Shown here piece by piece: positions 911-26,126 of a stretch of 30,472 bases of DNA (positions are counted from its first letter, which is position 1; every line of letters begins with the position of its first letter). A program made the translations under genes and the position numbers. Where the stretch lies: positions 1 through 30,472 of the forward strand of contig CAVPLM010000012.1 of the NCBI GenBank assembly GCA_963706025.1, written 5' to 3'. Source of the stretch: an uncultured Actinomycetes bacterium (GTDB lineage: Bacteria; Actinomycetota; Thermoleophilia; RBG-16-64-13). The notes under the pieces were generated by a model. That model made no database searches, had not been told where the DNA came from, and was given only the letters and a program-made list of their open reading frames with translations.

Positions 911-3341
911 GTGAGTCGCCCGGACAGGGGGTTCGCAGTGAGCGCGTCTTCTAAGCACTCCAGGCGTGTTCCGGCGGTCGCCCTCCTGGCCGGGATTGCC
1001 CTGCTTATGGTCCTGTCGGCCGCCGGTGTCCTGGCGGGGCCTGTGGAGGGTACGGTAACCACCTCGACATCCGCCATTCAGCTCTCCCCCCCTTCACCGA
1101 ACGCTCCCACCCTGCCCGTGACCTTCGCCGCCGCCCAAAAGGCACCCGCCGGCCTCGACTCCGTCCTCGATCAGGTGGAGCGCGTCTACCGGGCAGAAGG
1201 TGAGGACGCCGCTCTGAACTTCGCTGTGACGAGAGGGCTGAGGCTCGAGGGAGAAGGTGTCCGCGTGCTCGTCGAGGCGGAACCGGGCGCGGAGGCCTCA
1301 GCCCGTGCCGCCATCGAGGCCAACGGCGGTAGACTCCTCAGTTCCTATCGCGGCCTCTTTCTGGCTTCGGTTTCGCCAGACAAACTTCGGCGGCTACTCG
1401 AAGGCGCCGGTGTGCGTCGGGTGGTCCCGGACCTGCCCCCCACCTATGACGGCGACGCCTCTCCCCTGGGCCCCTCTCCCCTGGACCCCTCTCCCTCGGA
1501 CGCTTCTCCCTCGAGCGGGCCGCTCCCGGGCCCCGGGGCGCCCATGATCGTCGGCGGCGGAGATCGTCAGCGAAGGAGTGGCGGAGACCAACGCAAGCGC
1601 CTGGCACGAGGCAGGATACCGGGGTCAGGGCATCAAGATCGGCGTCATCGACTTCGGCTTCTCGGGCTATTCGTCACTGCTCGGCACCGAGCTTCCCTCT
1701 GTCGTCACCGCGTGGGGACAGAGTCCGGCGGGCTCAGAAGGCGAGGGCGGAGACCACGGCAGCAAAGTGGCTCAGGTGATACACGACATGGCCCCAGAAG
1801 CAGATCTGTTCCTGGCCCGGGTCGATGCCCTCACCGACTTCGGTCTGGCCAAGGACTGGCTGCTTTCCCAAGGGGTGCAGGTGATCAATTTCTCGGGCGG
1901 CTGGCACTGCTCGGGGCTGCTCGAAGGTGACGGTGACGCCAACACGATCGCGACCGACGCGGTGGACAGAGGCGTCTTCTGGGCCGGATCGGCCGGGAAC
2001 TTTCGCAAAAACCACTGGATGGGTGACTTCACCGATCCCGATCGCGATGGATGGCTGAACTGGGACGGCCAAGAGGAGGTACAGGTCATTTGGGCCGACA
2101 AGGGAAAGACCATCAGCGGCTATCTCACCTGGAAGGATTCCTGGAACGGCGCCAGTCAAGACTACGATCTGTATCTGTACCGTTGGGACGGTCAGAGCTA
2201 CATATACGAAACCGGCTGTGGCAACAGGCAAGACGGGACCGGCGACGCCGCCGGTCCCGTGGAGTGGGTCAGCTTCAAGGCCCCTTCCAGCGCCGCCTAC
2301 GCTTGGTTCATCAGGCGCTATGCAGCCAGTGGGACGAATGTCGACTTCGACTTCTTCTCCTACCACAACGCCTTTGACGATGGATACAGCTATTCCTTCT
2401 TCGACTACGCCCGTAGCCTCGGCAGCGCACCCGGGGACAACCGCTCGCGTGGCTTCATGGCCTCGGCGGCCATCGGTCGGGGACCGGCGTTCGCCCAGGA
2501 GGACTACTCATCGGAGGGTCCCACCCGTGATGGCCGCCTGGCGCCGGAGATAGCGAGTCCTTCGGACGTCCAGGTCTTCTTCGGGACCTTCAACGGCACA
2601 TCTGCCGCGGCCCCTCACCTGGCGGGAGCCGCAGCCCTGGTCCTTCAGGCCTTCCCCGACTACTCGCCGGCGCAGGTGGAGGATTACCTGAGGGCGAACG
2701 CCGTCGATCTGGGGCCGTCAGGGCCGGACAACCAGTTCGGCTACGGCCGGCTGCACCTTCCGGATCCCCCGACCGACCAGGTGGACTTTCCCGATGTCAC
2801 CGAGGCCCACCCCTATCACACGCAGATCAACGCTTTGGCCGCCCTGGGCATCGTCAGCGGCTATGGTGATGGGACCTTCGGCCCCGACAACCTGGTGATG
2901 CGCCAGCAGTTCGCCAAAATGATCGTGAAGGCACTGGGACTTCCGGTCACCGGGACTGAGATCTGCCCGTTCCGCGATGTCGGCGGCGGGATGGACCCCC
3001 GGGACCCGTTCTACCCGGATAAGTACGTAGCCGTCTGCGCGGCCCGGGAGATCACTCAGGGCAAGACCCCGACGAGCTTCGCTCCCTATGACAACATAAC
3101 CGGGCAGCAGCTCGTCACCATGGTGGCCCGCGCGTCGGATCTCTCCGACCCACCTTTGGACTACTTCCCGCCCTTCCTACCCTCCCAGTTCTACCCGCTC
3201 GAGCACTACCTCTTCGCGAGGAAGGCCGCCTACGCTGGGATTCTCGACGGGCTGGAAGGTATGGGGGCCAGCTACGGATTCCTGAGTCCGGCGACACGCG
3301 GCGAGGTCTGCGTGCTGCTCTACAACCTCCTGCGCCGGTAG
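911..3341 (+). CDS. Secreted S8 (subtilisin-like) serine peptidase with C-terminal SLH domains; frameshift near 1545-1560
   Basis: ORF 911 gives a signal peptide and prodomain. The frame of ORF 1578..3341 continues EIVSEGVAET with Asp (IGVIDFGF), His (DHGSKVA), oxyanion Asn (SAGN) and Ser (GTSAAAPH), then SLH repeats (GYGDGTFGPDNLVMRQQFAKMI). Start uncertain. Confidence 0.85.
1458..1517 (+). repeat. 15-bp coding tandem repeat x4 (Ser/Pro linker)
   Basis: CCTCTCCCCTGGGCC / CCTCTCCCCTGGACC / CCTCTCCCTCGGACG / CTTCTCCCTCGAGCG, encoding SPLGP-SPLDP-SPSDA-SPSSG. Confidence 0.8.
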
Positions 3342-3406
3342 GTAGAAATCCTCTCCAGCGATTGCCCAGCCTCTGGGTGGATGATCAGAGAGAACTTGGA
3401 CTTCTG

Positions 3407-3421
3407 CCTCCATTGTGGAGG
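3407..3421. terminator. Short hairpin between convergent genes
   Basis: CCTCCA-TTG-TGGAGG between the S8 stop (3341) and the Ord-like stop (3430). No clear U-tract. Confidence 0.3.
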
Positions 3422-3429
3422 AGGGTCGT

Positions 3430-4497
3430 TCAATGGTAGACGATCTTCCTCACAGGCTTGACGCCCGGGGACCCGCTCCATAGATGCGGCATGGCCAGCT
3501 CGTTCAAGGTATGGAAGCCTGGTGGGGAACGGAGCACCTTCGGCATGGCGTTGACCGCGGCTCCAGCCGTGCCCAAACCGCCCCGCTGAGCGATCTCTTC
3601 CTTGATCCTCACATCCACGGATGGAGTCCCATTGATGCGGGTGTAGTCTCCCATCTGGCTCCGTTCGTCGGTGTCGGGGCCGACAAAAGCCGTCATCTCA
3701 AAGTCCAGCAGCTGTCGATCCCCGGCGAAGCCGACCACCTGCTGCTTGAAGCCGTAGACCCGACCGGGAGAGATGCTCGCGAACTCCGTCTCCCTGCTGT
3801 GGTCTGTCACCAGTGGCTTCTTGGTCTGAAGAAGAAGCTCCACCGGCAGCCCAAGGCAGTGAGCGACCATGGCCGCCGTCTCTATCAGGCCTATGTGACC
3901 GATGTCACCGCTCCGGACGCCTCCAGCGAACTCATCCGGTGTGAGCCCCACCCCGATGTGCCTCATCTCATCTGGACCATAGGGCGAGAAATCGACCACC
4001 CGCCGGACAAACACATCTTCGACCTCCCAGCAGGGGAGAGAACACACGATCGGAACAACGTCCATGGCAAATCCCGGATTGATCCCCACCGAGACGACCG
4101 CGACTCCGGCCTGTTTCGCCGCGGCGTCGATCTCGCCGGCCAACCGCCGGTTCTTCGTCCCGACTGGAAAGAAGAGTTCCTGGGCGATGGCCACCACGCC
4201 GACGCCCCTGGCCAGGAAACCCATGATCTGGGGGAAAGCCTCCTTGGCAAAAGCCGTCGTCGCCAGCAGGACGACGTCGGCTCGGACCCGACCCAGTGCA
4301 CGGTCGCTTGGATGCCTGACCGTAACGCCCATGGCCCTGTCGAGTCCGGCCACCTCTCCCAGGTCTCGGCCGATCTTCTTCTCGTCGTGATCGATGGCGG
4401 CCACCACCCGGACCCGAGGTTTGGCCTGCAGCAGCCGGACCATGTTGCTGCCCATGGCACCAACACCGCACTGTATTACCCTCACCGAATCGGTCAT
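3430..4497 (-). CDS. 2,4-diaminopentanoate dehydrogenase (Ord) / native amine dehydrogenase family protein
   Basis: C-terminal part of ORF 3430..5886, with its own ATG at 4497 and an AGAGGA RBS. Rossmann GVGAMG, GINPGFAMD, DFSPYG and GHIG motifs match the Ord/DapB-like family. Confidence 0.8.
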   Translation of the reverse strand: MTDSVRVIQCGVGAMGSNMVRLLQAKPRVRVVAAIDHDEKKIGRDLGEVAGLDRAMGVTVRHPSDRALGRVRADVVLLATTAFAKEAFPQIMGFLARGVGVVAIAQELFFPVGTKNRRLAGEIDAAAKQAGVAVVSVGINPGFAMDVVPIVCSLPCWEVEDVFVRRVVDFSPYGPDEMRHIGVGLTPDEFAGGVRSGDIGHIGLIETAAMVAHCLGLPVELLLQTKKPLVTDHSRETEFASISPGRVYGFKQQVVGFAGDRQLLDFEMTAFVGPDTDERSQMGDYTRINGTPSVDVRIKEEIAQRGGLGTAGAAVNAMPKVLRSPPGFHTLNELAMPHLWSGSPGVKPVRKIVYH

Positions 4498-4595
4498 GTC
4501 GCATCCTCTCCTGGACCTCGAAAGCTCGTGCCGAACACCAGAAAGCGAGTGGCCGCCCGGCTGTTCGCCACCGGGCCGGCCACCAACGCACACCG

Positions 4596-5886
4596 CTAGG
4601 ACAGACCGGACGTTGATCCAAGGCGGTCCAGGCGGATCTGGGCCGCGAAACGATGGGCGTCCATACCCTCGTACCGACCCTGTGTCTCCGCCAGCCGGGC
4701 CAGCATGAGCGACGCCTGGGTGTCGACCATCTGATGCGTGATCACCTTCAGGAACATGCCCACCCAGAGTCCGCCCGTGTATTTGGCTGCTCGCCCCGGT
4801 AGGCAGTATGTGGTTCGTTCCGGCGACCTTGTCCGCGTACACCTCGGCGGTCTGTTCACCCAGGAAAAGTGAACCGTAGTTGTGCAGCAGCGGCAGCAGC
4901 GCTCGAGGCTGTTCCGTGTGGATCTCCAAGTGCTCGGGCGCCCATTCATCGGCGAAGCGGGCGGCGTCCTCCAGCGTCTCCACCAGTGCGACCTCGCCCC
5001 GCTTTTCCCATGAGGCTCGGGCGACCTCCTCCGTGGTGCGCTCCCGCAGTTGCCTCTCGATCTCCTCGAGGGTGGAGGAGGCCAGAGCCTCGGAGGTGGT
5101 GACGAGGGCGCAGCGTGCATTGGGGTCGTGCTCGGCTTGGGCGAGAAGATCGGCGGCCACGTACTCGGGCTTTGCCGTATGGTCCGCGATCACCATGCAC
5201 TCGCTCGGCCCGGCCAAGAAGTCGATCCCTACCTTCCCAAATACCTGGCGCTTGGCCTCGGTCACGTACTGGTTACCTGGGCCGACCACCAGGTTGACGG
5301 GAGCCAGGCTTTCTGTCCCGTAGGCGAGCGCGCCGATGGCCTGGGCTCCACCCAGACACAGGATCTCGGAGACGCCCATGCGAAAGAGCGTGTACAGGAT
5401 CCCCGGGTTGATGCCCTTCTCCTGGCCGGGCGGGCAGCAGGCCACGATTCTCTTGACCCCGGCTACCTTGGCCGGGACCACGGACATCACCGCGGACGTG
5501 AGGCAGGGATATCGGCCGGCCGGCACGTAACAGCCGCAGGACTCGACGGGGATTACACGTTGCCCCATCACGATTCCCGGCAGCATCTCCTTCTCGAACT
5601 CGGTGATGCTGGCCTTCTGGGCTTCGGCGAAAGCCGTCACTCGCTCGATGGCGAAGTCAAGCTCCTCGATGACGGGCTCCGGAAGGAGTCGTTGCGCCGA
5701 CGCGGCCTCCTCCGGGCTGACGAGAAAAGTGCTGGGTTCGTAATCGTCGAACTTCTTCTCGAAGTACCGCAGGGCCGAGTCTCCCTCGTCCTTGACCTGC
5801 TGGAGGATCGAAGACACCGTCTCCTGCAGTCGACGGACGTCCTCCTCGGTGACCGGTTCGCTCTTCTTGATAAGCCTGTGGTACAT
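4596..5886 (-). CDS. Histidinol dehydrogenase family protein, HpsN (sulfopropanediol 3-dehydrogenase)-like clade; +1 frameshift at 4794-4797
   Basis: GCYVPAGRYP, GPGNQYV, AGPSE, QAEHD, APEHL, YADKVAGTNHILPTG. Removing one base of the C4 run continues as RAAKYTGGLWVGMFLK...EGMDAH to the stop at 4596. Confidence 0.8.
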
Positions 5887-6001
5887 GGCGACCTCCTATC
5901 GTCCCCCTGATTATAGGGAGCGGCGACGACGCCCTCAACAGGGCGGGTAAGGCCCTACCGGCCGCCCAGGGATCGGGGGACGGCCTCGGTCCGAGAGAGT
6001 G

Positions 6002-6018
6002 TGCTATCATATAGAGCA
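6002..6018 (+). promoter_or_regulatory. Putative operator/promoter of the vapBC-1 module
   Basis: TGCTATCA-TATAG-AGCA (TGCT...AGCA inverted ends) upstream of the RHH antitoxin. TGCTATCA is the known FitAB half-site. Confidence 0.4.
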
Positions 6019-6066
6019 TGCATACGCAGTCAACAACTGATATCGGCGACTAAGACCTCCAGGGTA

Positions 6067-6327
6067 ATGACCCTCCGCGGCATCGATCCGGCGCTTCGGT
6101 CGGCCCTCGACGCCGAGGCTGCGAGGCTGGGTTTGAGCCTGAACGCGCTGATCCTGCAGATACTGCGAGGTTCGCTCGCTCTGGGCTCTGACGCGCGCCT
6201 GGCCCATGACCTGGATGCTCTGGCCGGCTCGTGGTCGCCGCAGGAAGCGGAGGAATTCGCCGCGGCTACCCAGGGCTTCGAAGAGGTCGACCCGTCGCTA
6301 TGGCAGGACCCCCCCGACGAGCCATGA
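6067..6327 (+). CDS. FitA-like ribbon-helix-helix antitoxin
   Basis: MTLRGIDPALRSALDAEAARLGLSLNALIL (RHH) and an acidic tail DLDALAGSWS...EVDPSLW. ATGA overlap with the PIN gene. Confidence 0.8.
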   Translation: MTLRGIDPALRSALDAEAARLGLSLNALILQILRGSLALGSDARLAHDLDALAGSWSPQEAEEFAAATQGFEEVDPSLWQDPPDEP

Positions 6328-6734
6328 GAGACGTGCTGCTGGATACCAACGTGCTGGCCGATTTCTTCGCCGGCGATCCGGAGACCGTGGAAGCCTTTCA
6401 GCGCAGTCGCACGTTGGCGATCAACACAGTGGTGCTCGGCGAGTTGCTGGGCGGGTTCGCTCTCGGGACCCGCGCCGGTGCGAACCGACGGCTCCTCTCC
6501 CGCTTCCTTTCCAGTCCGCGGGTCAAGGTGCTGGCCATGGGGGCGGAGACGGCCGAGCACTATGCCGACGTCTACGCGCAACTGCGCCGCAAGGGCAGGC
6601 CGATCCCCTCGAACGATATGTGGGTCGCGGCCAGTGCCCGGGAACACGGCCTGGTCCTGTTCACCCGCGACGTCCATTTCCGGGAGATCGAGGGACTGCT
6701 CACCGCGTCGTCGCTCGACCAGTTGCTGCCTTGA
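6324..6734 (+). CDS. vapC: VapC family PIN-domain toxin
   Basis: LLDTNV, GEL, PIPSNDMWVAA and TRDVHF acidic PIN motifs. Confidence 0.9.
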   Translation: MRDVLLDTNVLADFFAGDPETVEAFQRSRTLAINTVVLGELLGGFALGTRAGANRRLLSRFLSSPRVKVLAMGAETAEHYADVYAQLRRKGRPIPSNDMWVAASAREHGLVLFTRDVHFREIEGLLTASSLDQLLP

Positions 6735-6735
6735 A

Positions 6736-7161
6736 TCACTCGATCACCCTGACGGCTGGACCCTCTTTGCCGACCTTCTTCTGGAGCCGTGCGTCGGCGG
6801 TCCACAACTCGGTATTCAGCCGTTCTGCCAGGGCAAGATAGAAAGCGTCGTAGGTTGCGGGAAGCTTGAGGGATGCCGCCAAGCGGAGCGCGGTCTTCGA
6901 CAGCGCCTCAACGGGCTCGAGCCGCAGGGGCAGTTCCAGCGCCGCCTCGAGCACCAGTTCGGTCGTCACCAGACTGAGGTATCCCGCCTTGTGATAGCGG
7001 TAGAAGACGTTTGCCAACTCGTACATGAGAAGGGTGGGAGCGCAGACGGTCCTGCCTTCGTCACTCCAACCGTCGAGAAGCTTCCAAGCTTGGTCATCCT
7101 CGGGCCCGACGAACAACCGGGCGACGAAGCTCGCATCAACGCAGATCGGCGAGTTGCTCAT
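6736..7161 (-). CDS. vapC: VapC family PIN-domain toxin
   Basis: VDASFV, YELANV, YDAFYLALAE and WTADARL PIN motifs. Confidence 0.9.
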   Translation of the reverse strand: MSNSPICVDASFVARLFVGPEDDQAWKLLDGWSDEGRTVCAPTLLMYELANVFYRYHKAGYLSLVTTELVLEAALELPLRLEPVEALSKTALRLAASLKLPATYDAFYLALAERLNTELWTADARLQKKVGKEGPAVRVIE

Positions 7162-7438
7162 CGCGCTCGTCTCTCGCCTCTTGGAGCATCTCCTCGGGAG
7201 ACGGGATCTGCTTGCCCAGTAACTCCTCTCGCACGCGGCAGCGCACGGTCGACACCGTCTCGCGCCACCCTCGGCCCGCGCCCCTTGCCATCATTCGTTC
7301 GTACTCCGGCAATGCGATGACGACCACCTGGGGAACCCCGCCTCGCTCGACCACCACGGTCTCCCCCTGCTCTGCCACTCGCCGCAAGAGGTCGCCGAAG
7401 TGTACGCGGGCTTCGGTGGCGTTCAGTACGCGCTCCAT
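7136..7438 (-). CDS. Phd/YefM family antitoxin
   Basis: MERVLNATEARVHFGDLLRRVAEQGETVVVERGGVPQVVVI...EYERM; overlaps the start of the PIN gene. Confidence 0.85.
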   Translation of the reverse strand: MERVLNATEARVHFGDLLRRVAEQGETVVVERGGVPQVVVIALPEYERMMARGAGRGWRETVSTVRCRVREELLGKQIPSPEEMLQEARDERDEQLADLR

Positions 7439-7453
7439 CTCTCGCCCACTTTC

Positions 7454-7504
7454 ATCGATGGATCCATCGATTGATAGTCTACCTGACAGCGCGCGGCACT
7501 TCAA
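7454..7504 (-). promoter_or_regulatory. Sigma70-type promoter and perfect 18-bp palindromic operator of the phd-vapC module
   Basis: -35 TTGAAG (7504-7499), 17-nt spacer, -10 TAGACT (7481-7476). Palindrome ATCGATGGATCCATCGAT at 7454-7471 lies over the expected start site. Confidence 0.7.
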
Positions 7505-7570
7505 CGGCTCGGGCTCAGGCGCTACCGTAGCCCGGGGCTCCTTCCAGCCGCCGATGTCGCCTCTCATTCA

Positions 7571-8441
7571 TCAAGCGACCACGCTCAGGATGGTGACCGC
7601 CGCTATGGTGCAGATCACCCCGGCCACCTGGTGAGGGCGTGGTCGTTCCTTCAGAAGGACCAAACCCAGAATGACCGCCACGGTGGCATACTGGGAGACG
7701 GTCACGCCCGCCACCGCCAGCGGTCCGCGCTTGACGGCGAGGGTCATGGCGACCAAGCCCAACACCTCCAGGACGCCGGCACCCACACAGATGGCAACGC
7801 CTTTGCGGCCCAGCACGTTGCGCGGCCCCCGAGTCTGTCCCGCCCTTTGTGCCCGAGCGAGGGCCCAACCAGCCACCGGCAGGAAGAGGATCAAGCTCGT
7901 GATCCGTGACCAGGCCGCCTGCGAGAGCCACGAAAGCTCGCCGGCTTGGTCGAAGAAGATGATCGCAGTTGCCCAGAGCACGCCGGTGAGCAATGCCCAG
8001 CCGGCGCCGGCGGCCGACCGAGCCCGGCCCCGCACCGCGGCCAGCGTGCCGCCGAGGACCGCCAGGGCGATCCCCAGGCCCATCAGAGACGTGAAGCTCT
8101 CCCCCTCAAGGAGCGCAAACACCGCGATGAAGAAGCCTTCCAGCGAGGCCAGCGGGGCCACGAGCGAAAGATCACCGACCTGAAGGGCCCGCAGGATGCT
8201 GAACCATGTCGCCAGGTAGAACGCGCCCGCCGCGGCGCAGTAGGCCACAGCCCGCCACTGGGCACCGGTAGCAGGGAGCCCGTCGGCAAGGAGCGCTGCC
8301 GGGACCAGGATCACCACCCCGGTCGGAATGACCCAGCACAGGACGCGGACCAGACCTGCGAGGCGAGCACATGCGCTGCGCGAGCAGGTCGTGGAAGGCG
8401 TAGAAGACCGCCGACAAGAGCCCGATAAGGACCGTGAACAA
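7571..8441 (-). CDS. EamA/DMT family transporter; frameshift near 8360-8375
   Basis: N-terminus MFTVLIGLLSAVFYAFHD (ORF 8172..8441) joins the frame of 7571..8317. About 10 TM segments; GDLSLVAPLASLE and LGLVLLKERP motifs. Confidence 0.8.
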
Positions 8442-8495
8442 GAGAGCTATCTGCTTGCGCTCAAGACCCTGGACGCTGCGGCACTAACAAGAGGG

Positions 8496-9008
8496 CTAGG
8501 AGTAGGCGCCCCATTGCACGAGTGTCCGCAGACTGCGGCGTCTCTTGGTGCGGGCCGGCTGAGCGGGGTAGCCGAGGGGGGTCAGGATGAGCGGCTCCAG
8601 CTCCGGGGGAAGGTGCAAGACCTCGCGGACCACCGCCGGGTGGAAGTCGGCGATCCAGCAGGTCCCCAGTCCCAGGTCGGCCGCCTGCAGGATGAGGTGG
8701 TCCATCACGATGGCTACGTCGGTCTCGACGTAGGTCACTCCGTCTTTGCGCACCCAGGCCTCGCCCGCAACGGCGCAGGCTACGATGATCACCGGGGCGG
8801 TGTAGAACCACTTGCGCGAGTATGCTCCAGCCATCGCGGTCCGGGTGGGCTCGTCGGTGACGACCAGGAGGCGGAACGGCTGCCGGTTGTCGGCCGTGGG
8901 GGCAAGACGGGCGGCCTCCAGTACCTGGCGGACAAGGTCCTCCTCGACGGGGCGCTGCTCATAACGCCTCACGCTCGCCCGGGTAGTGACCAACTCACGG
9001 AAGTCCAT
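8496..9008 (-). CDS. Nitroreductase family protein
   Basis: MDFRELVTTRASVRRY, APTADNRQP, LGLGTCWI, LGYP; AGGAGG RBS. Confidence 0.9.
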   Translation of the reverse strand: MDFRELVTTRASVRRYEQRPVEEDLVRQVLEAARLAPTADNRQPFRLLVVTDEPTRTAMAGAYSRKWFYTAPVIIVACAVAGEAWVRKDGVTYVETDVAIVMDHLILQAADLGLGTCWIADFHPAVVREVLHLPPELEPLILTPLGYPAQPARTKRRRSLRTLVQWGAYS

Positions 9009-9034: not shown

Positions 9035-12000
9035 CTAGCGCGAAGCCGCATAGGCATTGCGGAACATCCTCATCCACGGACTGACGCTGCATCCCCATTC
9101 GGGCGGTACCCAGGGCCATTGGCGAAGCTGAAAGCTCCGCTCGGGGTGGGGCATGATCGCCAGGTGGCGGCCATCCGGGGAGCAGAGCGCGGCAATGCCC
9201 AGAGGGCTGCCGTTCGGGTTGTACGGATAGGTGGTGGTCGGGTTCGCGTCAGGGTCGACGAACCGGACGGGTGCCAGTCGGTTCTCGACGATCCAATCCA
9301 GCGTCGCCGGGTCGGGGACATGCAGGCGGCCCTCGCCGTGGGCCACCCAGACCCCCAGTATCGAGTCCTCCATCCCCCGCAGCATGACCGCGGGGCTCTT
9401 CTCGATGAGAACCGTGCTGAAGCGGGACTCGAAGCGTTCCGAGCGGTTCCTGATGAACCGAGGCTTGAGAGTATCGGGGAGATCGAAGCCGGGGATGCCC
9501 AGCAGCGCCATCAGCTGGCAGCCGTTGCACACGCCCAGAGAGAGGGTGTCCGATCGAGCGAAGAAACGGGTGAATTCCTCCGCCAGCCGCTCGTTGTTGC
9601 GGATCACCGATGCCCATCCCTTGGCGGAATCGAGGACATCACCGAACGAGAACCCGCCGACGAACGCGATCAGCTGGAAGCCCTCGAGATCGATAGCCCC
9701 CTTGATGAGATCGGTCATGGTGACGTCCCAGGGCTCGAACCCGGCCGCCAGGAAGGCGGCGGCCATCTCCCGGTCGCCGTTACTGCCCTCCTCGCGCAGG
9801 ATGGCGGCCTTCGGCTTGGTGACGGAGACGCCCCGGTAGCCGCCGCCGCGCGGGCGTCGCTCCGCCGCAGGCTCCGCGTCCGGATCGAAGCTGAGACGGT
9901 ACGGCCGTGTGCCGGCCCCCGACCGATGGGAGAGCCACTCCTCCTCGGCACACTCGGGGTTCGCCTGCAGGCGCTCGAGCTGGTAGCCGGTCTCCTCCCA
10001 GGTAGAGTGCAGCCCGCGCACCGGCTCCTGTAGCACGACTTCCTGGTTGAAGCTCAGCTCGACCGCGCCGTCCTGGACATGCCCCAACTCAATGCCGTCG
10101 ACGCCGTGGCGTTCGAGGATCCGGCGCGTCTGTTCTTCGTCGGCGACCTCTACGACGACGCCCGCCTCCTCCGCGAACAGGCATTCATACAGATCGTCTC
10201 CCTCGACCTTGACCCGCCAGCCCTTCTCGCCGGCGAAGGCCATCTCCAACAAGGTGACGATGAGCCCGCCGTCGCTGACGTCGTGGCAGGAGACGATCGC
10301 CCGGCTCCTGACCAAGTCCTGTACCGCCTCGAAGACCGACTTCAGAGACCTCGGATCCTCTATGTCGGGAGCCTCGTCCCCAAGCTGGGAAAGAACTTGA
10401 GCGAACGCACTTCCACCCAGCCGCCGCCTGCGTCCCACCGCGAGCAGCAGCAGCTTGTTGCCGTTCTCTTTCAGATCGGAAGTCACCCTCAGCCCGACAT
10501 CCGGCACCAGGGCGTAGGGGGCGATCACCAGCTCTGCGGGAGCTTTGACCAGCTCGCTGCCGCCTTCCGGGGTCAGTCCCTGGCTGGCCATCGAAAGGCT
10601 GTCCTTGCCCCCGTCGATAGCCATGCCGAGCGCGATCAGGAGGTCCCGGAGCGCGCACGCCGCGTCATAGAGCCATGCTCCCTCCCCAGGCTGCTTCACC
10701 GCCAGCATCCAGTTGGCCGAGCACTTGATCTCGCTGATGCCCGAGACGACCACGCCCGCCATGTTCAGAAGCGCCTCGGCCACGGCCATCCGAGCGCCCG
10801 CCTCGGGGCTGATCAGCCCCTTGATCGGTTGCTCGCCCAGGCTGAGGGCGGTCCCCGAGGGGTCGGCGTACGTCTGGGCGATCACCGCATAGTCCGACAG
10901 GGGCAGATGGCGGGGGCCGACCAGTTGCCGCTGGATGACAAGCCCGGTGACGTCCAGGTCGGCCTTGTTGGTGAGGAAGCGCTTGGAGCCTATTCCTGGA
11001 AGCCGGAGCACGAGGTCGAGCACCCGGCGCAGATCCGCGGCCGGGGGAAGGACCAGGGGCTCAAGGTCCGCCCGCCCCAGCCCACGCGGGGAGCGGCGCT
11101 CGAACTCGAACCTCTTCGGAGGCAGCCGCCCCAGGATGTCGTCCAAGGGGAGCTCGACCGGCCTGCTGTCGTCGGTCTCGTCGTACAGGACCAGCAACCC
11201 GTCGCCTGTCACCCGGCCGACGATCGCCAGCGGAACATTCTCGCGCGCCGCCAGGGTTTCCACGATCTCGAGCTTGGCGGGCAGGACGAGGAGGGCGTTC
11301 CTTTCCTGCGACTCGTTCCCCCATATCTCGAGGACAGAGAGCGTCTGATCGCCGACGGGGATCGCCCGCAGGTCGATCACCGCGCCGGCCGGCTCCACGA
11401 TCTCGGGCAGGGCATTGCAGTCGCCGCCGGCCCCCAGGTCGTGGGCGGAGACGATGGGATTCGCCTCGCCGAGCTCCACGCACGCCCGCATCAGGCGGTT
11501 GACCCGCTGCTCCATCTCAGGATCGCCGCGCTGGACGGCGTTGAAGTCGAGTTCCTGGACGTTCTTGCCCTGCTCCATGCTGCTCGCGGCTCCTCCGCCC
11601 ATGCCGATCCGGTAGGCCGGGCCGCCCACCTGCACCACCAGCATGTCCTTCTCCGGCCTGCCTTTGACGGTGTGCTCGTCCCTGATCTGGCCCGCTCCCA
11701 CGCTGTACATGATCGGCTTGTACCAGGAGCGGTAGCCATCGGGCAGCCGGAGGCCGAAGGTGCGGGTGAAGCCGTAGATGAGGGGTTCGCCGAAGCAGTT
11801 GCCGTAGTCGGAGGCGCCGTTGCTGGCCTCGATGAGGATGTCGACGGGCGAGGCGAGATCGGGAGGATGGGAGTAGCCGTCCTCCTCCCAGGGCAGCTCA
11901 TAGCCGGGGAGGTGGAGGTTGCCGACACAGTAGGCCGCGCCGGAGGCGTAGACGAGCCCGCCCCGCCCGACCGCCTGGTTATCCCGGATCCGCCCGCCCC

Positions 12001-16601: not shown

Positions 16602-17741
16602 TTACAGGCCGAGGCTCCTTGCGATCACGAGTCTCATCACTTCGGAGGTGCCCTCGCCGATCTCCAGCAGCTTGGCATCTCGCAGATAGCGTTCCACCGG
16701 GAACTCCCTGATGTATCCGTACCCGCCGTGGATCTGGATGGCATCTAGTGCTGCTCTGGTCGCCATTTCAGAGGCAAAAAGCTTCACGTAGCTTGCCTCT
16801 CGAGAGTAGGGCTGGGCGTTGTCTCGCAGCCAAGCGGCCTTCAGATACATGAGCCTGGCCAACTCTATGTTCATCGCTATGTCGGCCAGCTTGAACTGGA
16901 TAGCCTGGAACTTGCCGATGGGCTGGCCGAACTGGACACGCTCCTTGGCGTACTTCACGGAGGCGTCCAGGCAGGCCTGGGCGATCCCCACTCCCATCGC
17001 GCCGATGGCGATGCGGCCGCCGTCGAGCACCTTCAGGAACTGCTTGAAGCCTTCTCCACGCACGCCGATAAGGTTTCTCTCGGGCACTCTCACGTCGTCG
17101 AAGAACAGCTCCGTGGTGTTGGAGCCATGGAGGCCCAGTTTCTCGTATGCCGCCCTAACGGTGAACCCCGGCGTTCCGGTGGGCACGATGATGTCACTGA
17201 TGCCGCGTGTGCCTTTGCCCTTGTCGGTCACCGCGGTAATGGTCACGAACTTGGCGAAGCTTGCGTTGGTGATGTAGCACTTCGAGCCGTTGATGACCCA
17301 CTCGCCGTCCTCCAGCCTGGCGGTGGTCTGAGTACCACCGGCATCGGAACCGGCGTTTGGCTCCGTGAGGCCGAATGAGCCCATGCTCTCACCGCTGCAG
17401 AGCGGGGGCAGGAACTCCTTTTTTTGCTCCTCGCTTCCAAAGAGATAGATGGGCATGCAGCCGAGGGAGATGTGCGCCTCGTAGGTCAGGCCTGTCGAGC
17501 CGCAGGCCCCGGTGATCTCCTCGAGGGCCAGGCAGTAACTGACGTAGTCCCCTCCGGCTCCCCCGTATTCCTCGGCTATCGGCAGCCCCATCAACCCAAG
17601 CTCGGCCATCTGCTTGAGCGTCTCCACGGGGAAGGCGCCGGACCGGTCGACCTCCGCCGCCCTGGGCGCGATCTCGCGTTGGGCGAAGTCCTTGACCATA
17701 TCCCTGATCATCCGTTGATCTTCTGTTAGCTTGAAGTCCAC
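16602..17741 (-). CDS. Acyl-CoA dehydrogenase (short-chain/butyryl-CoA type)
   Basis: FGLTEPNAGSDAG, NGSKCYITN, KLGLHGSNT, GRIAIGA, QIHGGYGY, IGEGTSE. Confidence 0.95.
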   Translation of the reverse strand: MDFKLTEDQRMIRDMVKDFAQREIAPRAAEVDRSGAFPVETLKQMAELGLMGLPIAEEYGGAGGDYVSYCLALEEITGACGSTGLTYEAHISLGCMPIYLFGSEEQKKEFLPPLCSGESMGSFGLTEPNAGSDAGGTQTTARLEDGEWVINGSKCYITNASFAKFVTITAVTDKGKGTRGISDIIVPTGTPGFTVRAAYEKLGLHGSNTTELFFDDVRVPERNLIGVRGEGFKQFLKVLDGGRIAIGAMGVGIAQACLDASVKYAKERVQFGQPIGKFQAIQFKLADIAMNIELARLMYLKAAWLRDNAQPYSREASYVKLFASEMATRAALDAIQIHGGYGYIREFPVERYLRDAKLLEIGEGTSEVMRLVIARSLGL

Positions 17742-17771
17742 TTTCTCCCGCTTTCGCTCTGACCTAGAATC

Positions 17772-18539
17772 CTATGCCTCGAAATGTGGTTCTCTTTTGT
17801 CCAGAAAAGCACCGCAACCCTCGCGAGGTTCTTCGGTGGAGAACATCAGAGCATACAGACCTGACTCCAGGTGAAGGGCTTTCTCCAGATCCATATCCTG
17901 GCCGCGGTTCACGGCCTCTTTGCTGAGTCTCACGGCCTGGGTTCCTCTGCCGGCGATCCTTTGGGCCATGTCTAGGCAGTAGGCCAGCAGTTCGTCCGCC
18001 GGGACCACTTTGTTGACCAAACCCATCTTGCACGCCGATTCGGCATCGTACTGATCCCCGGTGAATAGGATCTCCTTGGCTCTGCCCGGGCCGACCAACC
18101 TGGTCAGTCTCTGTGTCCCCCCAAACCCGGCGATCATGCCCAATTTGACCTCAGGCTGTCCGAATACCGCCCGATCGGAGGCCACCCTGATGTCGCAGGC
18201 CATGGCCAGCTCATTGCCTCCGCCGAGGGCGTAGCCGTTCACCGCTGCGATGACCGGCTTCTTCAGGTTCTCGAGCCTGCTGAGCGTTCTGTGACCCAGG
18301 TCCGACCACTCCTTCGCCCGCTGGGGAGAGAACCCGCTCATATGGACGATATCTCCCCCGGCGACGAAAGCCTTACCCGTACCCGTGATGACCAGCACCC
18401 GTACCTCGTCATCGCTTTCGACCTGCGCGATGGCCTCGGAAAGCTCACCAAGCATGGCGACGTTCAGGGCGTTGAGTGCTTCGGGCCGGTTGATGGTAAG
18501 GAGCGCGACTCCATCATGCTTCTGTAGATCGACGTACAT
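17772..18539 (-). CDS. crt: Enoyl-CoA hydratase (crotonase)
   Basis: INRPEALNALN, AFVAGGDI, ALGGGNELAMACD, FGQPEVKLG (both catalytic Glu), GGTQRL. Confidence 0.9.
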   Translation of the reverse strand: MYVDLQKHDGVALLTINRPEALNALNVAMLGELSEAIAQVESDDEVRVLVITGTGKAFVAGGDIVHMSGFSPQRAKEWSDLGHRTLSRLENLKKPVIAAVNGYALGGGNELAMACDIRVASDRAVFGQPEVKLGMIAGFGGTQRLTRLVGPGRAKEILFTGDQYDAESACKMGLVNKVVPADELLAYCLDMAQRIAGRGTQAVRLSKEAVNRGQDMDLEKALHLESGLYALMFSTEEPREGCGAFLDKREPHFEA

Positions 18540-18638
18540 ACCGACTCACCAACCTCTCGTGTGCTCGACCGCCCCGGAGATGCCGCAGACGAAGTAGAAT
18601 ACCTCGCACGCACGATACGACACAGTAGGAAGAACCGC

Positions 18639-19190
18639 ATGATCGAGATACGATGGCACGGCAGGGGCGGACAGGGTGCGATCACCGCGGCGAAGATATT
18701 CGCCACGGCGGCATTCCAGTCTGGATACACCGGGGTGGTCATGGCCCCGACCTTTGGTACCGAACGGCGCGGCGCCCCGGTTTTCACCTCCCTCAAGATA
18801 GCCAGGGAAAAGATATACGACGTCTCCCCGATCGAGACCCCCGATATCGTGGTCGTCCTCGACCATCTTCTGCTGGCCGAGGTAGAGGTGGCCAATGGGC
18901 TCAAGGACGGCGGGCTCATCGTCCTGAACACCCCCAAACCCCTTGCGGCCTATGACTTCGGCGGCATGCGGCTGGCCGTGGCCGATGTCACGGCCCTGTC
19001 CGTGGAGGCGGGGCTGCGGCAGGGCATGGTGAACTCCGGTATCATCGGGGCCCTGTGCCGGGCGGTCGACCTCGTACCGTTCGATCTGGTCCTCGCGGAG
19101 ATCGAGGCCGAATTCAAGGACAAGAAACCGCAGGCCAACGCGCAGGCGGCCAGGCTCGCGTACGAGAAGACCATCGTGAGAGGCGCATGA
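18639..19190 (+). CDS. porC: Pyruvate/2-oxoacid:ferredoxin oxidoreductase gamma subunit
   Basis: EIRWHGRGGQGAITA, FGTERRGAPV. Confidence 0.9.
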   Translation: MIEIRWHGRGGQGAITAAKIFATAAFQSGYTGVVMAPTFGTERRGAPVFTSLKIAREKIYDVSPIETPDIVVVLDHLLLAEVEVANGLKDGGLIVLNTPKPLAAYDFGGMRLAVADVTALSVEAGLRQGMVNSGIIGALCRAVDLVPFDLVLAEIEAEFKDKKPQANAQAARLAYEKTIVRGA

Positions 19191-19537
19191 TGGGAACCAG
19201 GGGATATCGTTACAAGACATCACACAGCGAGTCCGGTCCGGGCGACGGCGGTAGGACGGGGTCCTGGCGCGTCCAGCGTCCGGTCCTCAACACCGAGCTC
19301 TGCACCCCGGCCCGGCGCGGCACCGAGGCCTGCTTCATCTGCTGGCTCTACTGCCCCGACTGTGTGATCTCGCGAACCATCCCGCCCACTATCGACTACG
19401 AGTACTGCAAGGGCTGCGCGATCTGCGCCGAGGAGTGCCCCACCAAGGCCATCACCATGGTGGACGAAGCCGACCGGCCCGCGGACGACGAGGAACCGAC
19501 GGCATGCTCATACGAGGGACCGAGGCCATGCACATAA
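19187..19537 (+). CDS. porD: 2-oxoacid:ferredoxin oxidoreductase delta subunit (2x[4Fe-4S])
   Basis: TGSWRVQRPV, CFICWLYCPD, IDYEYCKGCAICAEECP. Confidence 0.9.
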   Translation: MMGTRGYRYKTSHSESGPGDGGRTGSWRVQRPVLNTELCTPARRGTEACFICWLYCPDCVISRTIPPTIDYEYCKGCAICAEECPTKAITMVDEADRPADDEEPTACSYEGPRPCT

Positions 19538-20727
19538 TCGAGAATGGCAACGTCGCGGCGGCCCTGGGGGTCAAACTGGCCGGAGCCCAGGTGATCGCGG
19601 CCTATCCCATCACCCCGCAGACCCCCCTCACAGAGAAGCTCTCCGAGCTCATCGAGGCCGGCGAGATGCAGGCCCAGTACGTCCCGGTGGAGAGCGAGCA
19701 CTCCGCCTTGGCGGCCTGCATCGCCGCGAGCTCGACGGGCGCGCGGGCGTTCACGGCCACGAGCGCCAACGGGCTGCTCTACATGCATGAGCAGATCCAC
19801 TGGGCCGCGGGCGCCCGGTTACCCATCGTCATGTGCGTGGTGAACCGGGCCGTGGGTGCTCCCTGGTGCATCTGGAACGACCAGCAGGATTCCATCTCGC
19901 AGCGCGACACGGGCTGGATCCAGATGTATGCCTGCGACCACCAGCAGATCATCGACGGCGTCCTCAAGGCCTTCTCCCTCGCCGAGGCCACCAGCATCCC
20001 GGTCATGGTCTGCTATGACGGCTTCCTGCTCTCGCACACCTATATGCCCTTTGTCGTGCCCGAAGAGGAGAAGGTCGCGCGCTTCTTGAAACCCTTCAAA
20101 CCGGCCTATGCCCTGGACCCGGATAATCCGGCCAACCTCAACACCGTCACCCTGCCCGATATACGCATGGACGTCACGGGCGAGATGGCCCATGGGTATA
20201 TGGAGATCCGCTATCTGCTCCAGGAAGACCTGAGAGCCGCCCTGACAGTCGCCCAGCAGACCGAGGACGCATTCAAGGAGATCTTCGGGCGGGGCGGAAA
20301 CGCCCTCGTGGAACCCTATCGCTGCGACGATGCCGAGTACATCGTGGTCGGCCTGGGTTCGCTGACCTACCAGCTGCGAGATGTCGTGGAGATCCTGCGG
20401 GGCGAAGGGCTCAAGCTGGGCGTGCTCGGAGTCAGGCTCTACCGGCCGTTCCCCGATCAGGCCCTGGCCGAGGCCCTGCAGCATGCACGCGGGGTGATCG
20501 TCATCGAAAAGGCGCTGTCCTACGGCTACGAAGGCGCGCTTTGCTCGGATATCAAGGCCGCCCTGTATGAGCATATCCAAGACAGAAGCCGGGCCCCCTT
20601 CGTCAAGGGCATGATCGCCGGCATCGGGGGCCGCGACATCAGGACCCCCGACCTGACCGCCACTCTGCGCGCCGCCATCGCCGGCACGCCCGAAGAAGGT
20701 CCCGACTGGATCGGGATCAAGCTCTAA
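19528..20727 (+). CDS. porA: 2-oxoacid:ferredoxin oxidoreductase alpha subunit
   Basis: AYPITPQT, VESEHSA, TATSANGL, NRAVGAPW, RLYRPFP, GIGGRDI. Confidence 0.92.
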   Translation: MHIIENGNVAAALGVKLAGAQVIAAYPITPQTPLTEKLSELIEAGEMQAQYVPVESEHSALAACIAASSTGARAFTATSANGLLYMHEQIHWAAGARLPIVMCVVNRAVGAPWCIWNDQQDSISQRDTGWIQMYACDHQQIIDGVLKAFSLAEATSIPVMVCYDGFLLSHTYMPFVVPEEEKVARFLKPFKPAYALDPDNPANLNTVTLPDIRMDVTGEMAHGYMEIRYLLQEDLRAALTVAQQTEDAFKEIFGRGGNALVEPYRCDDAEYIVVGLGSLTYQLRDVVEILRGEGLKLGVLGVRLYRPFPDQALAEALQHARGVIVIEKALSYGYEGALCSDIKAALYEHIQDRSRAPFVKGMIAGIGGRDIRTPDLTATLRAAIAGTPEEGPDWIGIKL

Positions 20728-20740
20728 GGAGCGCCTGCTA

Positions 20741-21640
20741 ATGCCCACCAAGACCACGATACTCACGCTGCCCAAAGAAGAACTCGTCCACCCGGGTAAT
20801 CGGGCCTGCACGGGCTGCGGTCTGAGCATCGCCTACCGCATCGGGCTCAAGGCCCTGGGGCCGGATACCATCCTCATCGTGCCGCCCAGCTGTCTGACCG
20901 TACTGCAGGGACTCTTCCCCGTCGCCTCCACCAAGCTGCCCTGTCTGAACGTGACCTTCGCGTCCACCGCGGCGGCGGCCACCGGTGTGCTGGAGGCGCT
21001 CAAGGCCCAGAACAAGGAACACATCAAGGTCGTCGGCTGGGCCGGCGACGGCGGTACGGCGGACATCGGCATCCAGGCGCTGTCCGGGGCGGCCGAGCGC
21101 GGGGATGACTTCATCTTCCTGTGCTACGACAACGAAGGTTACATGAACACCGGGGTGCAGCGTTCGGGCACCACGCCGCAGTGGGCCTTGACCGCCAATA
21201 CGCCCATCAAGGGAAAGCTGCAGCAGAAGAAGGATATTCCCGCCATCATGGCCGCGCACGGCATCGACTACGTGGCCACGGCCTCGGCGGCCTACCCGTT
21301 AGACCTCTACGACAAGATCGGGAAGGCTATCTCCATCCGGGGGACCAAGTACATCCATATCCACACACCCTGTCCGCCGGGGTGGGGTTTCGAACCGCGC
21401 TATTCCATCAAAGTCGGCCGGCTTGCTGTGGAAACCGGATACTTCGATCTCTACGAGGTCGATCATGGCGCGTTCAGGCTGACCGGCGCTTCAGAGAAGC
21501 TCCTGGAAAAACGACAGCTTGTCCCGGTGCGGGACTATCTGAAGACCCAGTCGCGCTTCAAGATCCTCACGGAGGAGCAGATCGCCGAGATCCAGGCCCG
21601 GGTCGACGCCAAATGGAGCACGTACTACCAGGGGGCGTAG
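20741..21640 (+). CDS. porB: 2-oxoacid:ferredoxin oxidoreductase beta subunit (ThDP-binding)
   Basis: ACTGCG, AGDGGTADIG, YDNEGYMNTGVQRS, PCPPGW. Confidence 0.92.
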   Translation: MPTKTTILTLPKEELVHPGNRACTGCGLSIAYRIGLKALGPDTILIVPPSCLTVLQGLFPVASTKLPCLNVTFASTAAAATGVLEALKAQNKEHIKVVGWAGDGGTADIGIQALSGAAERGDDFIFLCYDNEGYMNTGVQRSGTTPQWALTANTPIKGKLQQKKDIPAIMAAHGIDYVATASAAYPLDLYDKIGKAISIRGTKYIHIHTPCPPGWGFEPRYSIKVGRLAVETGYFDLYEVDHGAFRLTGASEKLLEKRQLVPVRDYLKTQSRFKILTEEQIAEIQARVDAKWSTYYQGA

Positions 21641-21915
21641 GGGTCCGCCTCGAGCACTGCAGAGTACTGCAAAGCTCGCGGCAAACCCCTACGCCCCCTT
21701 GGTCATGAGGTGTGAGTCGCGGCAGCCCCGCCGTTGCCGGCGACTAGACGGCCGCCGCGAGCACTGCAGAGTACTGCAAAGCTCGCGACAGACCCCCACG
21801 CCCCCTTGGTCACGAGGTGTGAGTCGCGGCAGCCCCTAGCCGAAGTGCCGCCGAGGGGGAGAGCGAAGCTTTGCGTACCCGCAGTGCTTCGCGGAGACCC
21901 CTATGCCCCCTCGGC
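21630..21915. repeat. Cluster of REP-like palindromic repeats between convergent genes
   Basis: 79-bp direct repeat at 21651-21729 and 21758-21836 (4 mismatches, 107-bp period). Large hairpin AGGGGGCGTAGGGGT...ACCCCTACGCCCCCT at 21630-21699. Diverged inverted third copy at ~21851-21915. Confidence 0.85.
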
Positions 21916-21917
21916 CA

Positions 21918-22898: not shown

Positions 22899-22957
22899 CC
22901 ACCTCCTCCACCGTATCGTGGGCCTCCTCCTGCCGATCGAAGCGTCATCTCCACCGT

Positions 22958-23548
22958 CTAGAACGAGAAGCCTTCGGGTAGCGAACCGACTTTCGTGCCC
23001 GCGGGAACCCAGGAGAGATCCAGGATCGTATAGGTCGGATTGAATATCTTGAAGACCGGCAGCACCCGCATCCCGATCTGGGGCTCGCCTAGTAGAAGAT
23101 AGCTGAACAGAATGGTAGGCACGTTCTCGAATTCGACATTGATGAACTTGATCGGCTTGTCAAGCACGCTGAACGCACCCGATCTCTCGCAGACCATGAA
23201 CGTGTGAATGGTGGCCGTTTCCTTGGCAAGGTCGGTCATGTCGATGACCGTGCACTTCGAGAGACAATCCGGGCAATGGATCCTGAACGGCTGGAACACC
23301 GAACCGTTGGCTTCGCAGGCCGGGTTCTCGCACTTGGTAGCCATCAGCTTACCTTGTGAGAGCGATTCAAAGAATATCGCCTCGCCCCCATAGGAATGGA
23401 CATACGTCATATCCCTGGGCTTCGTGACGCCCATAAGCTTCCAGCCATGATCAGCATCCCTGATGGGCATATTCTGCTCGAGGCGATGGAAGTCACCCCT
23501 GAACCTGTACTTGTTGTCTTTTACCTGGACCCGTCCGTATGAACTCAT
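22958..23548 (-). CDS. Zn-ribbon/OB-fold (DUF35-type) thiolase partner protein
   Basis: FFESLSQGKLMATKC...C...HCPDC Zn ribbon followed by an OB fold ending IGMRVLPVF; directly downstream of the thiolase. Confidence 0.85.
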   Translation of the reverse strand: MSSYGRVQVKDNKYRFRGDFHRLEQNMPIRDADHGWKLMGVTKPRDMTYVHSYGGEAIFFESLSQGKLMATKCENPACEANGSVFQPFRIHCPDCLSKCTVIDMTDLAKETATIHTFMVCERSGAFSVLDKPIKFINVEFENVPTILFSYLLLGEPQIGMRVLPVFKIFNPTYTILDLSWVPAGTKVGSLPEGFSF

Positions 23549-23560
23549 TGTCGGCCTCTC

Positions 23561-26103: not shown

Positions 26104-26126
26104 ATTCTGGTGCGACGAAGGGCGCA

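Follow-up and report, generated by a model that had tools for sequence, protein, structure and literature searches.

We analysed a stretch of 30,472 nt (hereafter, the window) that makes up the entire contig CAVPLM010000012.1 (C12) of an uncultured Actinomycetes bacterium (Thermoleophilia, RBG-16-64-13; GCA_963706025.1), with a focus on two neighboring genes located on its minus strand between positions 3430 and 5886. The Pfam scan identified a Histidinol_dh domain (PF00815, E 4.8e-130) in the first gene, and a DapB_N plus DAP_DH_C arrangement of the Ord-like type (E 6.6e-46) in the second. In the deposited sequence, as in the gene call recorded for the contig, 3430-5886 is one single open reading frame (ORF) of 818 aa, with Histidinol_dh at residues 14-369 (profile positions 5-361 of 411), DapB_N at 469-543 and DAP_DH_C at 606-805. 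If read as in its intact relatives, gene 1 (4596..5886) encodes a 429-aa protein of the HisD/HpsN family, which we place below in a GRYPC / Asp-Lys clade. In the window, this gene is split over two frames, of 363 codons (5886-4797) and 66 codons (4796-4599), followed by the stop TAG at 4598-4596. Gene 2 (3430..4497) encodes a 355-aa protein similar to Ord and to the native amine dehydrogenases (nat-AmDHs; PF01113 + PF19328), here called Q-type for its Gln106 at the position of the catalytic Glu. The spacer between the two genes (4498..4595, minus strand) contains a Shine-Dalgarno-like AGGAGAGGA at 4512-4504, ahead of the ATG of gene 2 (4497).

This locus had been singled out in an earlier reading made from the sequence alone (the original prediction), according to which the two enzymes together could turn an amino-alcohol, possibly sulfonated, into an oxo-acid. 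The 98-nt gap described there is exact, from the TAG of gene 1 to the ATG of gene 2. The motifs on which that reading was based (QAEH, PEH, YADK-GTNH, YTGGLWVG, EGMDAH and AQEL) are all present, although distributed over two frames, and the frameshift at 4791-4793 had been missed.

The 818-aa ORF results from one extra base, a +1 frameshift at 4791..4793 (minus strand, ACC GGG G[C]G [A]GC), that shifts the frame of gene 1 into gene 2. The missing C-terminus of gene 1 (…RAAKYTGGLWVG…YEGMDAH…stop) sits in the +1 frame, with the break near 4791-4797, and the frame that is read on instead has zero stops before gene 2. We compared contigs of four public runs with positions 3400-6000 of the window; run X4 has no coverage of the frameshift site, and the three runs that cover it, which come from three studies, all leave out one base, either at 4791 (X1) or at 4793 (X2 and X15). 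The window has both the A (4791) that is missing in X1 and the C (4793) that is missing in X2 and X15, and its bases at these two positions look like a consensus blending two alleles. Five bases at 4588/4589, in the spacer, are also missing in the contigs of the three covering runs. The closest database relative of gene 1 (P0123, 99% identical) is an intact protein of 429 aa (363 + 66 residues) that reads …NHILPTGGAAKYTGG…, and the corresponding 90% cluster comprises, besides the window's own 818-aa call, four proteins of 429 aa and five of 355 aa that come from other assemblies. Because none of the three covering runs has the extra base and relatives 99% identical are intact, the 818-aa fusion was most probably created by the assembly and should be regarded as an artefact.

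Frame breaks are frequent in this assembly (30 contigs, 3.66 Mb, 92% complete, 7.3% contamination), and gene calls from this record call for caution. The hisD gene found on contig C5 (C5:761353-762558; about 9350-10630 of locus L008) is broken into at least four frame pieces, and the gene calls read hisH and hisA as one ORF and fuse a substrate-binding protein to a permease. In the window itself, a PrpD gene (25806-27583) is split over two overlapping ORFs. Alignment of the window with the haplotig contigs C13 and C3, which are about 97% identical to it, opens 1-3 gaps per kb, and single bases account for 37 of the 55 gaps. Window 20841-30472 occurs a third time, at the end of C3.

Haplotig C13 (region C13:35945-36107) matches the window from position 5977 onward, without the two-gene operon, from which only two remnants of about 80 nt are left, both derived from the 3' part of gene 2 (window 3410-3489 and 3629-3711). 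Window 6763-7133, with a PIN gene, is likewise missing from C13. No orthologue of gene 1 was found among 40 relatives, in which the best match was 49% identical. The Ord-like protein was not found in three genomes of the same genus, and elsewhere among the relatives there are only homologues 32-34% identical, plus one 61% fragment. Since the pair was not found in the 40 relatives and is missing from the sister-strain contig, it is a strain-level accessory cassette, with a patchy distribution across phyla.

The near absence of the operon from C13 and of an orthologue from the relatives would also suit a real frameshift, which is after all present in the deposited sequence, with gene 1 being a pseudogene (or the 818-aa protein a true fusion) in a strain where the cassette is decaying. 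We consider this improbable, given that the extra base is missing in three of three covering runs, in the A/C pattern expected of a consensus that blended two alleles, and that frame breaks affect even the hisD of the his operon. In addition, none of 24 long representatives of the HisD family has an Ord-like domain.

Gene 1 passes the hisD model TIGR00069 with its N-terminal part alone (421 bits, against a cut-off of 243.8), and its C-terminal part scores 27.8 bits to profile positions 340-393. The zinc and catalytic residues are all kept (Gln250, His253, Glu318, His319, Asp352 and His411), and the QAEH, PEH, ADK and EGMDAH motifs align to both CpHpsN and HisD and are invariant in our clade alignment (A2). 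The two known families were reported to differ in one loop, G-S-A-P-L in HisD homologues and G-R-Y-A/S-H in HpsN homologues, and His126 and Lys353 to bind the sulfonate in HpsN (PMC11382572). Gene 1 carries a GRYPC loop and an Asp-Lys pair (YADK), and neither a HisD-type loop (G-S-A-P-L or G-x-A-x-Y) nor Asp-Tyr is present. D352 and K353 are invariant in the A2 alignment, and the second sulfonate contact of HpsN (Lys353) is thus kept. In the alignment of the intact orthologue L021 with CpHpsN (PDB 8v35), Asp-Lys falls on Asp352-Lys353 and the Cys of the loop on His126. The loop reads GRYPC in 117 and GRYPT in two of the 120 homologues listed. A PDB search with L021 gave CpHpsN as the best match (336 bits), followed by the HisD proteins of Brucella (305) and E. 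coli (270).

Trees were built from 50%-identity family representatives plus clade members, with FastTree (124 rows) and with IQ-TREE under LG+G4 (49 rows); the 75 rows outside the reduced IQ-TREE set are mostly Asp-Tyr representatives. HpsN was anchored by P0259, which matches CpHpsN with 737 bits, and the HisD anchors P0312 and P0349 fell on the Asp-Tyr side. Both trees part an Asp-Lys half from an Asp-Tyr half (94/91 in IQ-TREE). In the IQ-TREE topology the GRYPC clade, gene 1 included, has 100/100 support and a long stem, and is located in the Asp-Lys half, outside the HpsN clade (100/98). The original prediction had assigned gene 1 to the HpsN branch rather than to HisD and had called for a phylogeny; it was right about the half of the tree, opposite HisD, and about Lys353, but the clade is separate from that of HpsN and has Cys in the place of His126. 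Judging from these sequences, gene 1 would belong to a new subfamily of its own, the GRYPC clade, within the half that contains HpsN and departing from HpsN at its defining His.

An attempt to anchor HpsN by tblastn against plasmids returned 387 records, none reaching 60% identity and most of them annotated as hisD. The Klebsiella (L037) and Alloyangia (L038) plasmid regions proved to be other uncharacterised Asp-Lys paralogues, not HpsN, and the PDB anchor was used instead. These paralogues are annotated as histidinol dehydrogenase, and the contexts of their type are a LacI-type regulator, the HisD-like gene and a GntP-type permease, or a short-chain dehydrogenase/reductase (SDR), a hydrolase, RraA and the HisD-like gene.

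No other his gene was seen among the 30 ORFs of the window that were scanned, as the original prediction had stated, and the separate hisD that it suggested looking for was found on C5, in a second PF00815 locus adjoining IGPD (hisB), GATase + His_biosynth (hisH/A) and His_biosynth (hisF). Because of this separate hisD in a his operon, and of the placement of gene 1 opposite HisD in the tree, gene 1 is by its sequence not the biosynthetic hisD. In the part of the AGeNNT paper available to us, PF00815 is named only within his operons (PMC5445326).

The protein encoded by gene 2 has the DapB_N + DAP_DH_C architecture of the nat-AmDH family (PF19328). Its best NCBIfam match is the Ord equivalog NF040740, at 293 bits and under the 400-bit cut-off, in agreement with the original view that it is an atypical Ord. 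The PDB matches were 7xdu (215 bits) and AmDH4 (6g1h/6g1m, 197 bits), and also 6iaq and 6iau. The catalytic residue of the family was reported to be a Glu, E102 in AmDH4, E108 in CfusAmDH and E111 in MATOUAmDH2, and the E102A mutant of AmDH4 to be almost inactive (PMC9325545). This Glu occupies position 'P3', and the members without it (group G5) were described as inactive in reductive amination and expected to have a divergent activity; the context analysis in that study gave no clear metabolic role (PMC11164908). A gap-free alignment of the motif sets IAEEMAFP of AmDH4 against IAQELFFP of the window, with E102 opposite Gln106. When the window protein and the 120 homologues listed were aligned with MAFFT, Gln106, Glu107 and Arg166 were each found in 121 of 121 sequences, whereas the position of AmDH4 N163 is Val in 118 and that of H264 is Met in 114. 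Arg166 aligns to R161 of AmDH4. R161 would correspond to P9 and H264 to P15, the residues for the terminal carboxylate in groups G1/G2. More distant homologues in related genomes have Glu at P3 (4/4).

As AQEL stands for a lost catalytic Glu, the oxidative deamination that the original prediction attributed to this enzyme is doubtful, and so, from its residues, would be any canonical amine dehydrogenation. Its score and residues also indicate that gene 2 is not a true Ord. Families of ornithine aminomutase and 2-amino-4-ketopentanoate (AKP) thiolase, whose absence had been remarked on originally, were found neither in the 30 window ORFs nor in the neighbor clusters of 99 loci (no genome-wide search was made). 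We therefore hold it extremely unlikely that these are just ordinary genes, namely a second copy of the biosynthetic hisD together with a genuine 2,4-diaminopentanoate dehydrogenase from ornithine fermentation. Passing TIGR00069 and having Ord as the best NCBIfam match would agree with such an identity, but the HisD motifs are not present, the tree and the hisD in the his operon speak against it for gene 1, and for gene 2 so do the Ord score below cut-off, the missing Glu and the lack of the two ornithine families in the window.

Two Ord-like genes of different types, an E-type (VAEELAYP) and a Q-type (IAQELFFP), occur in tandem at L026:4868-7062. This tandem follows a GntR/FCD regulator and is adjoined by a class-III aminotransferase and an Amidohydro_2 gene.

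A conserved pairing in other genomes had been proposed as a check, and it was found. A search anchored on the Ord-like protein recovered 19 loci in GTDB genomes, in eight of which a HisD-like gene 70-76% identical to that of the window lies directly upstream, on the same strand. These eight metagenome-assembled genomes (MAGs) are labelled Aminicenantes, 'delta proteobacterium', Eubacteriales, Sumerlaeota, Spirochaetota and Anaerolineaceae. One more locus has the HisD-like gene 3.7 kb away, and two rhizobial ones contain another HisD-like gene of the Asp-Lys type (44-47% identical), which a Cupin_7 gene separates from the Ord-like gene. In Mesorhizobium and Aminobacter (L034, L036) the order is XRE-cupin, Asp-Lys HisD-like, Cupin_7 and Q-type Ord-like, and the HisD-like gene is annotated as histidinol dehydrogenase. 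A second search, anchored on the HisD-like protein in metagenome contigs, kept 80 loci: 22 paired, 2 near, 32 unpaired (flanked on each side by 300 nt or more) and 24 not judgeable. Among HisD-like genes at least 70% identical to that of the window, 20 were paired, 1 near, 7 unpaired and 9 not judgeable, so that 20 of the 28 informative loci are paired; below 70% identity, the numbers were 2, 1, 25 and 15, respectively. The pairing, which occurs in many bacteria from sediments, is conserved across phyla yet separable, not obligatory, and since few loci under 70% identity are paired, the operon characterises the subclade of the window.

The paired loci (30 in all) contain several additional genes, including DctM (7 loci), DctQ (6), DctP (5), an EamA transporter (6), a GntR/FCD regulator (4) and a CocE/NonD S15 hydrolase (5, plus two loci with the Ord-like gene only). 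The recurrent gene order is dctP-dctQ-dctM-(eamA)-HisD-like-Ord-like, as in L039, L040 and L053, and the genes of this tripartite ATP-independent periplasmic (TRAP) transporter are frequently directly upstream of the pair. The TRAP binding protein has only remote PDB matches (137 bits or less; an unspecified DctP, SiaP and an isethionate binder), and therefore its ligand cannot be inferred from them. A combination of BKACE and an amino-acid permease beside the pair was seen in only two related loci. A link to hydroxyproline, from the AcnX / X-Pro-peptidase context, was not adopted, since AcnX occurs in only two related loci.

In a Bathyarchaeia MAG (L031:2016-8582), an iron-dependent alcohol dehydrogenase (Fe-ADH), a 4Fe-4S ferredoxin and an aldehyde:ferredoxin oxidoreductase precede the Q-type gene, and a class-III aminotransferase faces it. 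The Fe-ADH and the aldehyde:ferredoxin oxidoreductase are possibly a non-orthologous replacement of the HisD-like step, that is, an alternative route from alcohol to acid. Genes for class-III aminotransferases adjoin the Q-type Ord-like gene in three loci, L022, L026 and L031.

The GRYPC clade also includes an unpaired sister subclade (L083-L118, e.g. L093, L099, L112 and L115), whose members belong to a different and tightly conserved operon. This operon is composed of a GntR/FCD regulator, a PF01041 enzyme (DegT/DnrJ/EryC1 family), the HisD-like gene, a creatininase-family gene, UPF0261, HD and a PHP 'histidinol-phosphatase-domain' protein, and in 19 loci the PF01041 gene is directly upstream of the HisD-like gene. 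A divergent IlvD/EDD dehydratase and, in four loci, a ComB-like phosphatase were also observed. By analogy, this layout would echo the HisC-HisK-HisD logic, with another substrate. PF01041 is the family of CuyC, described as the cysteinolate racemase that partners HpsN (PMC12814064).

These contexts bear on the pathway originally proposed, in which gene 1 would make an amino acid from an amino-alcohol by oxidation, and gene 2 would then convert it to an oxo-acid by oxidative deamination of an amine on it. Gene 2 is a member of the Ord/nat-AmDH family, the sister subclade combines HisD-like enzymes of the same clade with an enzyme of the CuyC family that depends on pyridoxal phosphate (PLP), aminotransferases stand beside three of the Q-type genes, and E-type and Q-type enzymes come in tandem in L026. 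What makes us see the deamination as rather unlikely is gene 2 itself, with Gln for the catalytic Glu in 121 of 121 sequences and Val/Met at the N163/H264 positions, together with the published behavior of AmDH4 E102A, almost inactive, and of Glu-less members, for which no reductive amination was reported (PMC9325545, PMC11164908).

The other suggestion of the original prediction, a sulfonated substrate, lost ground in our analysis. Among five genomes that carry the pair, Xsc exceeded its cut-off in one and a SuyB-type domain was found in one. Neither Xsc nor a SuyB-type lyase was found in the window's genome (92% complete), a result that does not extend to CuyA and the glycyl-radical sulfolyases, which were not searched. 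No recurrent hpsO/hpsP-like neighbors of the pair were seen in the neighbor clusters. Because of these Xsc/SuyB results and of the change from His126 to Cys, a role in the metabolism of 2,3-dihydroxypropane-1-sulfonate (DHPS) or cysteinolate is unlikely. Gene 1 could still be thought of as a functional HpsN that oxidises one of these two compounds, with gene 2 replacing HpsO/HpsP or sulfolactate dehydrogenase, as CpHpsN is its closest solved structure, the Asp-Lys pair is common to HpsN, and many clade members were named sulfopropanediol 3-dehydrogenase by JGI. TauE/SafE-family genes near the pair in L024 and L060, and the remote similarity (127 bits) of the TRAP binding protein to an isethionate-binding DctP, point in the same direction. 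We nevertheless give this explanation very little credence, since the His that defines HpsN is Cys in 117 of the 120 clade members listed, the clade falls outside that of HpsN, and neither lyases, within the search just described, nor hpsO/hpsP-like neighbors accompany the pair with any regularity.

Based on our data, we lean by a small margin to a reading in which this is a two-gene operon, artificially fused by the assembly, that serves as a module for the catabolism of an anionic 2-amino- or 2-hydroxy-alcohol taken up by the cell. Such an accessory and horizontally spread module would act on a small organic anion, often imported by TRAP transporters and ending in -CH(NH2 or OH)-CH2OH. By homology to HpsN and HisD, gene 1 would be a four-electron dehydrogenase dependent on Zn2+ and NAD+, taking the primary alcohol to the aldehyde and then to the carboxylate in two NAD+-dependent steps, and Lys353 (perhaps also Arg125/Cys128) would hold the anionic group of the substrate. 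Gene 2, acting either after or before gene 1, would carry out NAD(P)-linked redox chemistry on a neutral hydroxyl/ketone or imine group of that same molecule, which bears the carboxylate; we suppose a neutral centre because of the change from Glu to Gln and the retained Arg. A more specific version of this proposal, which we advance as a tentative possibility with the balance tipped against it, is an undescribed catabolic route for carboxylated, non-sulfonated amino- or hydroxy-alcohols entering through TRAP transporters, widespread in anoxic sediments and using a Cys-bearing cousin of HpsN and a Gln-bearing nat-AmDH whose chemistry has been switched. If true, the 'Glu-less' branch of nat-AmDHs would be assigned a physiological role and a reaction for the first time.

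Several observations weigh against this reading of the operon as a catabolic module. The substrate is assigned from sequence and context, the window itself has no TRAP genes beside the pair, and the non-transporter neighbors differ widely between loci (AcnX, Opp-type ABC transporters with C45/C69 peptidases, M19 dipeptidase, CoA-transferase, BKACE with the amino-acid permease, and TauE). Eight of the 19 loci with a Q-type Ord-like gene have no HisD-like gene within their flanks (in two cases the contig is short or edge-limited), and conversely 7 of 28 GRYPC genes in the close set, and 25 of 28 in the more distant set, have no Ord-like neighbor. The PF01041 partner and the class-III aminotransferases point to C-N chemistry, which stays in play at the neighboring carbon because the sister partner belongs to the CuyC family, and the amine idea may still apply. 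Finally, the frameshift may be real and specific to this strain, and a sister haplotig without the operon would also fit decay.

As for the surroundings of the operon, the divergent intergenic region on its 5' side (5887..6066, minus strand) has sigma-70-like sites at 6033-6006 and 5938-5910 and a ribosome-binding site, AGGAGG, at 5897-5892. The scan for sigma-70 consensus found three sites against 0.4 expected, and two of them precede the start of gene 1. No terminator-like site was found in 3200-8600 by the terminator scan, and the Rfam scan of the whole window gave zero matches, hence no riboswitch or leader was identified 5' of the operon. We asked whether the operon might begin with a minus-strand ORF at 6030-6677, and rejected this because the ORF is a shadow of a plus-strand toxin-antitoxin pair made up of a ribbon-helix-helix (RHH) and a PIN gene. 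Two type II toxin-antitoxin modules, back to back, separate the operon from an EamA gene: FitA-like RHH + PIN on the plus strand (about 6001-6734), and Phd/YefM + PIN on the minus strand (6736-7567). On the 3' side, an S8/SLH protease gene is convergent with the operon. More than 10 kb away, window 16602-29273 holds a separate organic-acid / acyl-CoA cluster, with acyl-CoA dehydrogenase, enoyl-CoA hydratase, subunits of a 2-oxoacid:ferredoxin oxidoreductase, a PLP enzyme resembling threonine dehydratase, a thiolase-domain protein, a Zn-dependent alcohol dehydrogenase, PrpD and AtuA-family genes. Two direct repeats of 85 nt (21645-21729 and 21752-21836; 94% identical, 22 nt apart) are present in this region, and also in the C13 and C3 copies.

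Both enzyme families attract current interest, HpsN for its part in the organosulfur cycle and the native amine dehydrogenases for their use in biocatalysis; most of the latter have no known natural role. We found no prior description of the pairing, or of either subfamily, in the open-access full text of PMC and bioRxiv, a search that did not reach the supplements of PMC11164908. Members of the two clades are routinely given the automatic names histidinol dehydrogenase, sulfopropanediol 3-dehydrogenase, dihydrodipicolinate reductase or 2,4-diaminopentanoate dehydrogenase. The residues that we compared argue against each of these four names, and for this reason DHPS, histidine or ornithine functions may be counted too often when metabolism is reconstructed from sediment MAGs. 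Through the conserved operon, which in several loci adjoins a TRAP binding protein, the substrate is directly accessible to experiment.

Among known systems, HisD (E. coli 1k75, Brucella 4g07) shares with gene 1 the family, the metal site and the four-electron mechanism expected of it, and the hisD model is passed by gene 1. HisD differs from it in having Asp-Tyr and GSAPL/GTASY in place of Asp-Lys and GRYPC, in lying on the other side of the tree and in its his-operon setting. The similarity to HpsN (CpHpsN, PDB 8v35; Bilophila HpsN) is greater, comprising the PF00815 fold, the Zn ligands and the Glu/His pair in the same numbering, the Asp-Lys pair and the G-R-Y start of the discriminating loop, and the representative of the CpHpsN cluster is about 43% identical to gene 1. 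Nonetheless, HpsN has GRY[A/S]H, with His126 as sulfonate-binding residue and Zn ligand of the apo form, where gene 1 has GRYPC, and the partner of gene 1 is an Ord-like enzyme, without hpsO/hpsP or a sulfolyase among the neighbors.

The CuyC-HpsN pair of the D-cysteinolate pathway, as described in PMC12814064, is comparable to the operon studied here in that a HisD-family dehydrogenase, converting an alcohol to an acid, stands next to an enzyme acting on the adjacent stereocentre. The partner in the subclade of the window is, unlike CuyC, an NAD(P) oxidoreductase and not a PLP enzyme, and CuyA/CuyB were not seen near the pair, although CuyA was not specifically searched for. Gene 2, in turn, has the two-domain fold of Ord and AmDH4 (7xdu, 6g1h; nat-AmDH groups G1/G2) and an Arg at the position of R161 of AmDH4, but differs from them in the Gln at P3, in Val/Met at the N163/H264 positions, in an Ord score below cut-off and in the absence of neighbors for ornithine fermentation. 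It most resembles the 'G5' class outlined in PMC11164908, whose members are without the Glu at P3 and are expected to have a divergent activity.

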